NCBI GenBank assembly: GCA_965231015.1
Contig: OZ246408.1
Span: 396,488-460,487, forward strand
Source of the DNA: an uncultured Gammaproteobacteria bacterium
GTDB lineage: Bacteria > Patescibacteriota > Patescibacteriia > UBA9934 > CAZDDW01
Direction: 5' to 3'
Length of the DNA stretch: 64,000 bases
The notes under the pieces are model-generated. The model did no database searches, was not told the DNA's origin, and saw only the letters and a program-made list of their open reading frames with translations. Each line of letters opens with the position of its first letter. Positions within the stretch are counted from its first letter, which is position 1. Positions 16,037 to 18,010 of the stretch are shown here, one piece after another. Position numbers and translations under genes: made by a program.

Positions 16037-16077
16037 TTTGTGGTAGGTTGTCGTGTCGAAGACAAAGGGAGGTCACT

Positions 16078-16665
16078 GTGTCCAAATACCGTTATTTCGA
16101 TTTGACTCCAGAAGTGATCGGGGCCATGATCATTGCCGCCAAGGAACGAACCAGCTTGTTCCAGGTTGAGTGGATAACGGCCCGTCCTTTCACTCACCTG
16201 ATGGTTCTCTCGCGCCTTCAGGTCTCGGCCTTGGAACTCGAGGCCGCGGCTCTGGTGTATTCACTGGATTCAGACGGTGCTCTGCCACTGCTTCATGACA
16301 GCGAGGTTGGTAGAAAGGTCCGGGCTCCGGTGAGGCAATTGAGTCGTTTCAACCTGGAGGTCACCGGCAACCAGGCCTGGCGAACCGAGCAAGAAAAGAG
16401 AATCGATTATTTGCGGCAACAGTGGAATGACGAAGTGATGAGTTTTCTGATGGCTTTGTGGGTGACCGAACTGCTGGAATTTGTTTGGTTGCGTCACAAA
16501 GACTGGGATTATTGTCTTCATCAGCCGGACATTCACTGGCTCTACTTCACAGAGAATCTGTTCGATCTATACAACATGAAGTACCGTCTGGGCGCGGACG
16601 AGCGTCCCCCTCTTGATGAGTGGAAACGTCTGGTGCGCGACATTCTGAGCCTACATCTGCGATAA
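16078..16665 (+). CDS. RelA/SpoT-type HD-domain-like protein, paralogue 1 (HD replaced by YS), GC-rich
   Basis: GTG start after GGAGGT; ELEAAALVYSLDSDG aligns to the RSH AETLAAALLHDVVEDT region. Confidence 0.4.
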   Translation: MSKYRYFDLTPEVIGAMIIAAKERTSLFQVEWITARPFTHLMVLSRLQVSALELEAAALVYSLDSDGALPLLHDSEVGRKVRAPVRQLSRFNLEVTGNQAWRTEQEKRIDYLRQQWNDEVMSFLMALWVTELLEFVWLRHKDWDYCLHQPDIHWLYFTENLFDLYNMKYRLGADERPPLDEWKRLVRDILSLHLR

Positions 16666-16685
16666 AAACAGAAGGGAATTGTGAC

Positions 16686-17300
16686 ATGAGTATTCTTGAA
16701 GAGCGCTTCGATCTGGTTGAAGAGATGAGCAGTGTTACGTTCCAAGTCGAGCTGGCCAATCAGGCCGTCCGTCTGGCCAGGGACATTCTGGTGGAAAGCC
16801 CGGAGGACAGTCAGTACAATCCCTTGGCCCGACCCCAAGAGATTTACATGCTGGCCCACTTCTGGGAGGTTCCGGACGAGGTGGTAGCCGCTTGCCTGAT
16901 GTATGGGCTGGTCGGGCACAACCAGTCTATCGAGGCCGGTCTTGTGGCCGAGCACACGAATTCGCGTGTCGCCGAGATCCTGTCTCAAGTACGAAAGATC
17001 ACCATTCGTTTCAACAAGAAGCGGAGTCTGGCCAACCTGAGGCCCTTTGCCATGCTGGCCGCCGAGAACGATCCCGATGTTCTCTTCACGGTCGTGGCCG
17101 GACTGATCTTTGTCAATATGGCCCTGATAAGAAACCTGGAGGCCCTGGCCGGCAACGACTATGCGGCCAGAGAGCTGCTCCTTGATACGGCCATGGCGGT
17201 ATCACTCAACACTGCCCACCCTCACAATCAGGGCTTGATGAAGGCTCTGGAGGATTTCGATCATCCCATCAAGAAGCAGTGGCTGGCTCAACTGGTCTAG
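16686..17300 (+). CDS. RelA/SpoT-type HD-domain-like protein, paralogue 2 (HD replaced by YG), GC-rich
   Basis: Hand alignment over ~170 aa to the SpoT hydrolase domain (LARD.., DEVVAACLMYGLV, VAEIL.., ..NMALIRNL.., DYAARELLLD); the catalytic residues are not conserved. Confidence 0.45.
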   Translation: MSILEERFDLVEEMSSVTFQVELANQAVRLARDILVESPEDSQYNPLARPQEIYMLAHFWEVPDEVVAACLMYGLVGHNQSIEAGLVAEHTNSRVAEILSQVRKITIRFNKKRSLANLRPFAMLAAENDPDVLFTVVAGLIFVNMALIRNLEALAGNDYAARELLLDTAMAVSLNTAHPHNQGLMKALEDFDHPIKKQWLAQLV

Positions 17301-17349
17301 TCCACTTCTTGACCCCTCCTTCACCCGCTTGAATTGCGGGTGTTTCTTT

Positions 17350-17378
17350 TTGACAGCGTTCAGCTCGGGGTGTAAGTT
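17350..17378 (+). promoter_or_regulatory. promoter (TTGACA-17-TAAGTT) for paralogue 3, downstream of the terminator at 17322-17350
   Basis: read directly. Confidence 0.4.
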
Positions 17379-17407
17379 TAAAATAGGTTTATGTTAGGAG
17401 GTGGAAA

Positions 17408-18010
17408 GTGGAATCCGGACTGAATATCTGGTCCAAAGGTCTGCCTTACGGGGTGGCTAAAGTGGTAATACTCGCTGGTGACTATCAGCGAGTAACCGGT
17501 ACCCGTCTGGTTTGCAACCAAGCTCCATTTCTGCTCCTTTGCACTTTGGTGCAACTAGAGGTTCAAGATCCTGTGGCTTCGGCCGCGGCTTACCGAATTT
17601 TTTTCGGCATGGACTTTGTGCCTCATTCCACTACCGAGCTGACCGCTCGGCTTGGCGAGGAGGTGGTCGGTCTGATTCTTCGAGTCATTAATCCGTATAA
17701 CATGGGTCTTGAAAACGAAGAAGATGCGGCGCTTATGTTCTTTGATGACCTTGTGGAAATGAATGCCAACGAACAGACTGTGGCCGCGCTTATCGAGTTG
17801 GCTGAAATCATGAAATTGGTGCGCATGCTCACCAATTTTCCTGATCCGGACAAGAGCCGTTTCTGGGCTTTCACTCGACACAAGCCAGAGTTCATCAACT
17901 GGTATTATCAGGAGTTGATTCGATGGTTAGATCGAGCCGATGAACGTTTGATTCAGTTAATCCAAATCAACTACAAACATATCGAGCCAACTTTATTCAG
18001 CTCGAGCTAA
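17408..18010 (+). CDS. RelA/SpoT-type HD-domain-like protein, paralogue 3 (degenerate), GC-rich
   Basis: ELTARLGEEVVGLILRVIN / VAALIELAEIMKLVRML / PDPDK align to RSH EIEERFGPEVARLVDGVTK / RVILIKLADRLHNMRTL / RPDK. Confidence 0.45.
   Translation: MESGLNIWSKGLPYGVAKVVILAGDYQRVTGTRLVCNQAPFLLLCTLVQLEVQDPVASAAAYRIFFGMDFVPHSTTELTARLGEEVVGLILRVINPYNMGLENEEDAALMFFDDLVEMNANEQTVAALIELAEIMKLVRMLTNFPDPDKSRFWAFTRHKPEFINWYYQELIRWLDRADERLIQLIQINYKHIEPTLFSSS

Follow-up and report, generated by a model that had tools for sequence, protein, structure and literature searches.

Three tandem genes for catalytically degenerate proteins with a putative small-alarmone-hydrolase fold in Candidatus Uhrbacteria

Three consecutive genes (g1, g2 and g3) were found to lack every catalytic metal ligand of the RSH hydrolases, and their products are best read as degenerate proteins with a small-alarmone-hydrolase (SAH) fold, i.e. 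pseudo-hydrolases (probability roughly 65%). The genes lie in a 64,000-nucleotide stretch of DNA, referred to below as the window. In bacteria, (p)ppGpp is a stress signal and SAHs are small enzymes that destroy it. RSH hydrolase domains have two known forms: the active enzyme (Rel, SpoT, SAH, MESH1) and the inactive domain within RelA. The DNA comes from a tiny-genome, groundwater-type bacterium, Candidatus Uhrbacteria, and to our knowledge the stringent-response biology of CPR/Patescibacteria is almost unexplored.

In agreement with the original prediction, three co-directional ORFs encoding ~200 aa each were found on the + strand at the predicted positions, each in a different reading frame, and a Shine-Dalgarno-like sequence was read directly in front of each start codon (Table 1). 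The products are acidic cytoplasmic proteins, and the N-terminus of g3 (MESGLNIW) is also found in its ortholog. Only 20 nt separate the g1 stop codon from the start of g2, which makes co-transcription of g1 and g2 probable. The hairpin downstream of g2 is followed by TTTCTTTTT (tail given as TTTCTTTTTG) and resembles an intrinsic terminator; g1-g2 and g3 therefore look like separate transcription units. A promoter context of its own had also been claimed for g3; no sigma-70-like promoter was found upstream of g3 by consensus scan.

Table 1. Positions of the g1-g3 genes, their signals and the canonical SAH genes of related Uhrbacteria
Feature	Sequence	Position	Strand	Description
Shine-Dalgarno-like GGGAGG	window	16067-16072	+	5 nt upstream of the g1 GTG; read from sequence
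g1	window	16078-16665	+	GTG start, 195 aa; His-Asp position: Tyr61-Ser62; most diverged putative SAH-fold paralog
Shine-Dalgarno-like AAGGGA	window	16672-16677	+	8 nt upstream of the g2 ATG; read from sequence
g2	window	16686-17300	+	ATG start, 204 aa; degenerate RSH-type HD domain; His-Asp position: Tyr73-Gly74; Asn144 kept at HD6
Intrinsic-terminator-like hairpin and T-run	window	17322-17352	+	downstream of g2; hairpin 17322-17342: 7-pair stem (6 G-C), loop 7
Shine-Dalgarno-like AGGAGGT	window	17396-17402	+	5 nt upstream of the g3 GTG; read from sequence
g3	window	17408-18010	+	GTG start, 200 aa; predicted SAH fold; His-Asp position: Tyr62-Arg63; Glu133 at the HD5 Asp; Asn143 kept at HD6
Canonical SAH	L027	18031-18687		HD_4 E=3e-13, passes the Pfam threshold
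Canonical SAH	L044	13229-13807		HD_4 E=5e-11, passes the Pfam threshold

The three ORFs are real genes and are kept under purifying selection. In a sister lineage, a syntenic contig with 76% nucleotide identity (L001) has all three genes intact, as separate ORFs whose lengths are unchanged (195, 204 and 200 aa). Orthologs of g1 were found at 70% (P0004) and 46% (P0007) identity; the ORF is intact in three lineages for g1, and in two for g2 and g3. Compared with L001, dN/dS was 0.08 (g1), 0.20 (g2) and 0.05 (g3), with synonymous sites near saturation (dS > 1). The dN of g1-g3 was 0.16-0.21 versus 0.06-0.08 for the neighbouring genes, i.e. their evolution is 2-3 times faster. This faster evolution and the loss of catalytic residues described below would fit decaying remnants (pseudogenes of a former SAH, or the single frameshifted gene raised as a doubt in the original prediction), and visible decay of msrB and msrA is seen in another part of this region. 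Decay is nevertheless most improbable for g1-g3: no ORF is broken or changed in length between lineages, each spans the whole ~190-aa domain end to end and has its own ribosome-binding site, and the dN/dS values of 0.05-0.20, obtained despite a dS above 1, in practice rule out one frameshifted gene or pseudogenes.

By database searching, the three proteins are near-orphans. Word-indexed homolog searches with each protein returned only the protein itself and one ortholog apiece, and exhaustive HMMER searching of 1.84 billion proteins with g1, g2 and g3 concatenated returned only self matches and one extra g1 ortholog. Scans of g1-g3 against NCBIfam, PHROGs and PADLOC gave nothing meaningful; no match was obtained for g2 in the GTDB genomes, nor for the Uhrbacterial SAH in the metagenomes. 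With phmmer and hmmsearch, PDB sequences gave chance matches only (BceF, designed ankyrins, acylphosphatase). An ankyrin repeat in g1 was rejected, since the weak designed-ankyrin matches consist only of a short 'DSDG.LPLLH' string. A defence system or toxin-antitoxin module was likewise rejected (no PADLOC matches, no synthetase neighbour).

Similarity to RSH hydrolase (RSH-HD) domains was detected directly for g2 and g3. HD_4 (PF13328) was the sole Pfam match of g2 (library-wide E=0.0043), at 17.2 bits against a gathering cut-off of 27.2 bits; g1 and g3 had no Pfam match, and the cut-off was reached by none of the three. HD_4 also ranked first for the g2 ortholog P0002 (E=0.064, 13.4 bits), and the other orthologs had no match. 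With hhalign, g2 matched the RSH-HD profile at E=0.003-0.008 (score reached by 0/120, 0/60 and 0/100 shuffles), the family profiles of g1, g2 and g3 being only 2-3 sequences deep and the hhalign probabilities low (5-55%). Under relaxed settings, the g2 alignment to RSH-HD ran end to end (residues 19-202). When the 59 ORFs of the window were ranked against the RSH-HD profile, g3 and g2 took first and second place (112 and 52 aligned columns, respectively), and the next two ORFs had at most 14 aligned columns. The RSH-HD scores of g2 and g3 were equalled by no shuffle.

The direct comparison of g1 with the RSH-HD profile was not significant (E=0.09-0.2; 0.089 over 122 collinear columns), and its score was matched by 6/60 and 22/100 shuffles. 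In a leave-one-out test, which relies on the sibling families being placed correctly by MAFFT, each family was compared with the RSH profile plus the two sibling families: the score rose from 16.2 to 23.9 for g1 (E=0.006), from 24.8 to 25.4 for g2 and from 26.1 to 33.7 for g3, with 0/60 shuffles reaching it in every case. In an alignment by MAFFT alone, the three families were collinear, with three shared anchor points: the 'HP' Pro, the 'AA' that precedes HD, and the 'KLAD' Leu. Direct BLASTP and hhalign comparisons among g1, g2 and g3 gave no significant paralogy, except for a marginal g1-g2 match (E=0.017). The description of these genes as RelA/SpoT-type HD-like proteins thus held for the most part, with uneven support: the likeness stands for g2 on direct evidence and for g1 only via the leave-one-out test and the marginal g1-g2 match, by which g1 is a putative member of the SAH-like set. 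Their description as paralogous is borne out transitively, not in the direct pairwise comparisons. Aligning the paralogs with one another and using a custom profile allowed a family placement despite the lack of a detectable homolog among 1.84 billion proteins.

For structure prediction, g3 was modelled with AlphaFold2; no templates were used, and the alignment contained no RSH sequence. One of the five models was moderately confident (pLDDT 64.9, pTM 0.59) and the other four had a pLDDT of 42-45. In a Foldseek search with g3, the top 20/20 matches were RSH hydrolase domains, which have a ten-helix fold (TM up to 0.62-0.68); an SAH fold is accordingly a prediction for g3. For g2, modelling gave a poor result (pLDDT 41.7), with no meaningful fold matches.

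Canonical SAHs are encoded in related Uhrbacteria metagenome assemblies (MAGs), where HD_4 proteins adjoin MgtE or RNR (Table 1). The L027 protein was aligned with g3 over 191 columns (22% identity) and both proteins have the C-terminal motif FW-x11-WYY; direct comparison of g1 and g2 with the L027 protein gave no significant match. The L027 and L044 SAHs resemble g1-g3 in belonging to the same phylum-level lineage, in their neighbourhood beside RNR-CobA-MgtE and in length, and differ in that they are single genes with intact HD motifs.

The proteins might instead be unrelated, lineage-specific all-helical orphans with a spurious resemblance to RSH-HD domains, the g3 model being an AlphaFold artefact of weak composition or periodicity signals. 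All the sequence statistics are indeed in the twilight zone, a pLDDT of ~42 was obtained for g2 and for all g3 models but one, no intermediate relatives were found by exhaustive HMMER, and g1 alone did not rise above shuffles. We consider such a coincidence improbable: three independent lines (HD_4 for g2, custom-profile matches of both g2 and g3, and the template-free g3 model) converge on one family and one register, and g3 can be aligned end to end with an equally long canonical SAH from Uhrbacteria, with which it has a lineage-specific C-terminal motif in common.

Active-site residues were compared with 15 bona fide RSH-HD sequences (SpoT numbering; residues given in the order g1/g2/g3). 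H48, H72, D73, E76, D77, D139 and N143 are invariant in 15/15 references; the roles of the HD motifs (Mn2+ ligands, nucleophilic attack by HD4) have been described (PMC9293644). The HD2 His (H48) is replaced by R36/R49/A39 (R, R(Q) and A across the families), the HD4 pair (E76-D77) by S65-D66/G77-H78/F66-G67, and the HD5 Asp (D139) by V129/G139/E133. At the HD3 His-Asp (H72-D73), Tyr-Ser, Tyr-Gly and Tyr-Arg were found, with Y(F) at H72 in the g2 family. The predicted loss of the dyad was thus borne out in all three proteins, and the replacements first proposed (YG, YS or FG) were close to those found; in addition, every other metal ligand is lost. The HD6 Asn (N143), which like the HD1 Arg coordinates guanine, is kept in g2 and g3 and is Lys in g1. 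The generic HD superfamily signature (Pfam HD, PF01966; H...HD...D) is also absent.

Since g1-g3 have other residues in place of all four Mn2+ ligands (HD2 His, HD3 His-Asp, HD5 Asp) and of the catalytic Glu-Asp pair of HD4, (p)ppGpp hydrolysis by the known mechanism would not be possible for these proteins, and they would be free-standing pseudo-hydrolases. The missing metal-binding residues in all three suggest that they are probably non-catalytic binding or regulatory proteins. The position of the guanine-stacking HD1 Arg is Q/N/Q, with an adjacent Arg in g3, in a loop where the alignment is uncertain; judged from these residues, the non-conservation of this Arg would make the suggested alarmone binding doubtful.

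The genes could still encode enzymes, in which the SAH scaffold was re-tooled with other catalytic or metal residues for another substrate. In favour of such neofunctionalised proteins, purifying selection on the genes is strong, and each family has invariant polar clusters of its own, as follows: RPFTH, H140, D151-I-H153-W and D174-E-R-P in g1; H58, H78, N144, H178-P-H180-N-Q-G and D192-H-P in g2; D69, E130/E133, N143, R157-H158 and E104-E-D in g3. An acidic residue (E133) stands at HD5 in g3, and both g2 and g3 have retained the HD6 Asn. Canonical SAHs are moreover promiscuous, e.g. MESH1 on NADPH (PMC9765508). This explanation is nonetheless unlikely, because 0/4 canonical metal ligands are retained in any family, the replacements differ among the paralogs, unlike a shared new active site, and, structural core residues apart, the three families share no new motif.

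The pseudo-hydrolase reading was compared with known systems. With the SAHs (RelH of C. glutamicum, 7qoc/7qod; Leptospira RelH, 7qoe; PaSAH, 6yvc; Lmo0812, 4yf1; MESH1, 5vxa and 3nr1), g1-g3 have in common a single domain of ~180-200 aa, predicted as all-helical, a collinear whole-domain alignment for g2 and g3, and core positions (the Pro after HD2, 'AA' before HD3, the KLAD Leu and, in g2 and g3, the HD6 Asn). They differ from SAHs in the lack of the Mn2+ ligands, the HD4 pair and the conserved HD1 Arg, in scores below the Pfam gathering cut-off, and in being three very diverged tandem copies.

The HD domain of RelA is inactive and plays a regulatory role (PMC8012599, PMC3153485). This domain and the divergent HD of rickRel[hS] would be similar to g1-g3 in that the fold was retained as a functional regulatory module after the hydrolytic residues were lost (PMC3153485, PMC8012599). 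In those proteins, however, the HD domain is fused to a synthetase in a long RSH, whereas each of g1-g3 is a separate ORF, with start and stop codons of its own, for one free-standing domain of ~200 aa, and no synthetase domain was found in the 64-kb window by tblastn with full-length SpoT. The multi-copy rickSpo[H] hydrolases of Rickettsiales and Orientia offer a parallel, as single-domain RSH hydrolase paralogs that have multiplied within one lineage of host-dependent bacteria with reduced genomes (PMC3153485), but they are recognised by family HMMs and tied to transposable elements, and g1-g3 are far more diverged and catalytically degenerate. The SAH antitoxins of toxSAS modules (ATfaRel, PbcSpo subfamily) are also small RSH hydrolase-fold proteins in short operons (PMC7229694). 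They have an adjacent SAS toxin and need their active site, as a D54A mutant made to test exactly that indicates; g1-g3 have neither.

As to function, the all-helical SAH scaffold would most likely serve binding and not catalysis, in a pseudoenzyme mode comparable, by analogy, to the inactive hydrolase domain of RelA as a regulatory module. The bound partner may be a protein, the three proteins themselves or a nucleotide-like ligand. Any specific binding or regulatory mechanism, taken alone, is tentative and falls clearly short of even odds. Canonical SAHs are dimeric (PMC9293644). A bolder and somewhat more doubtful proposal is that g1-g3 are the first free-standing RelA/SpoT pseudo-hydrolases: a CPR SAH would have been triplicated and catalytically stripped, and its products would cooperate, e.g. 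in a hetero-oligomer that uses the dimer interface of SAHs, to sense or regulate a nucleotide signal or a partner enzyme without catalysis, with the GC-rich codon usage marking a special expression regime. No description of free-standing RSH pseudo-hydrolases was found. If the pseudo-hydrolase reading is true, the pseudoenzyme concept extends to small RSH proteins, as a conserved, triplicated set of dead SAH-fold proteins, and the genes provide a handle on how CPR genomes may invent lineage-specific regulators from housekeeping enzymes. The practical reach is limited, the genes being known from only two or three closely related metagenomic lineages and their function being putative.

The neighbours of g1-g3 encode a trypsin-like protease, a lipoprotein, a CYTH protein and a membrane protein; no mobile-element gene was found among the neighbours examined and no partner RSH enzyme in the window. 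A functional link to the adjoining CYTH gene was rejected: the adjacency is kept only in the very close relative L001 and therefore carries no weight.

The predicted GC-richer block was confirmed by composition: the GC content of g1/g2/g3 was 0.52/0.56/0.48 versus 0.40-0.46 for the flanking genes, and GC3 was 0.617/0.712/0.532 versus a median of 0.44 for the 59 ORFs of the window. The horizontal acquisition that had been proposed with it was not supported. On that account, the three genes would have come together, as an island foreign to the Uhrbacterial genome, from a donor of higher GC. Besides the GC3 values, it agrees with the finding that the closest Uhrbacteria in GTDB lack the genes in their syntenic region and with several further GC3-rich ORFs without Pfam families in the window. 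However, the L001 orthologs have almost the same GC3 (0.633/0.702/0.537) in spite of nearly saturated synonymous sites, and GC3 is 0.67 in the g1 ortholog of 46% identity, which indicates a maintained composition and not an un-ameliorated trace. No donor-like homolog was found among 1.84 billion representatives, and a canonical SAH resembling g3 lies in the same neighbourhood of related Uhrbacteria. The flanking genes of normal GC (protease, lipoprotein, CYTH and a 391-aa protein) are equally absent from the closest relatives. Transfer is thus unlikely, and the most likely source of the genes would be a canonical SAH already resident in the Candidatus Uhrbacteria lineage.

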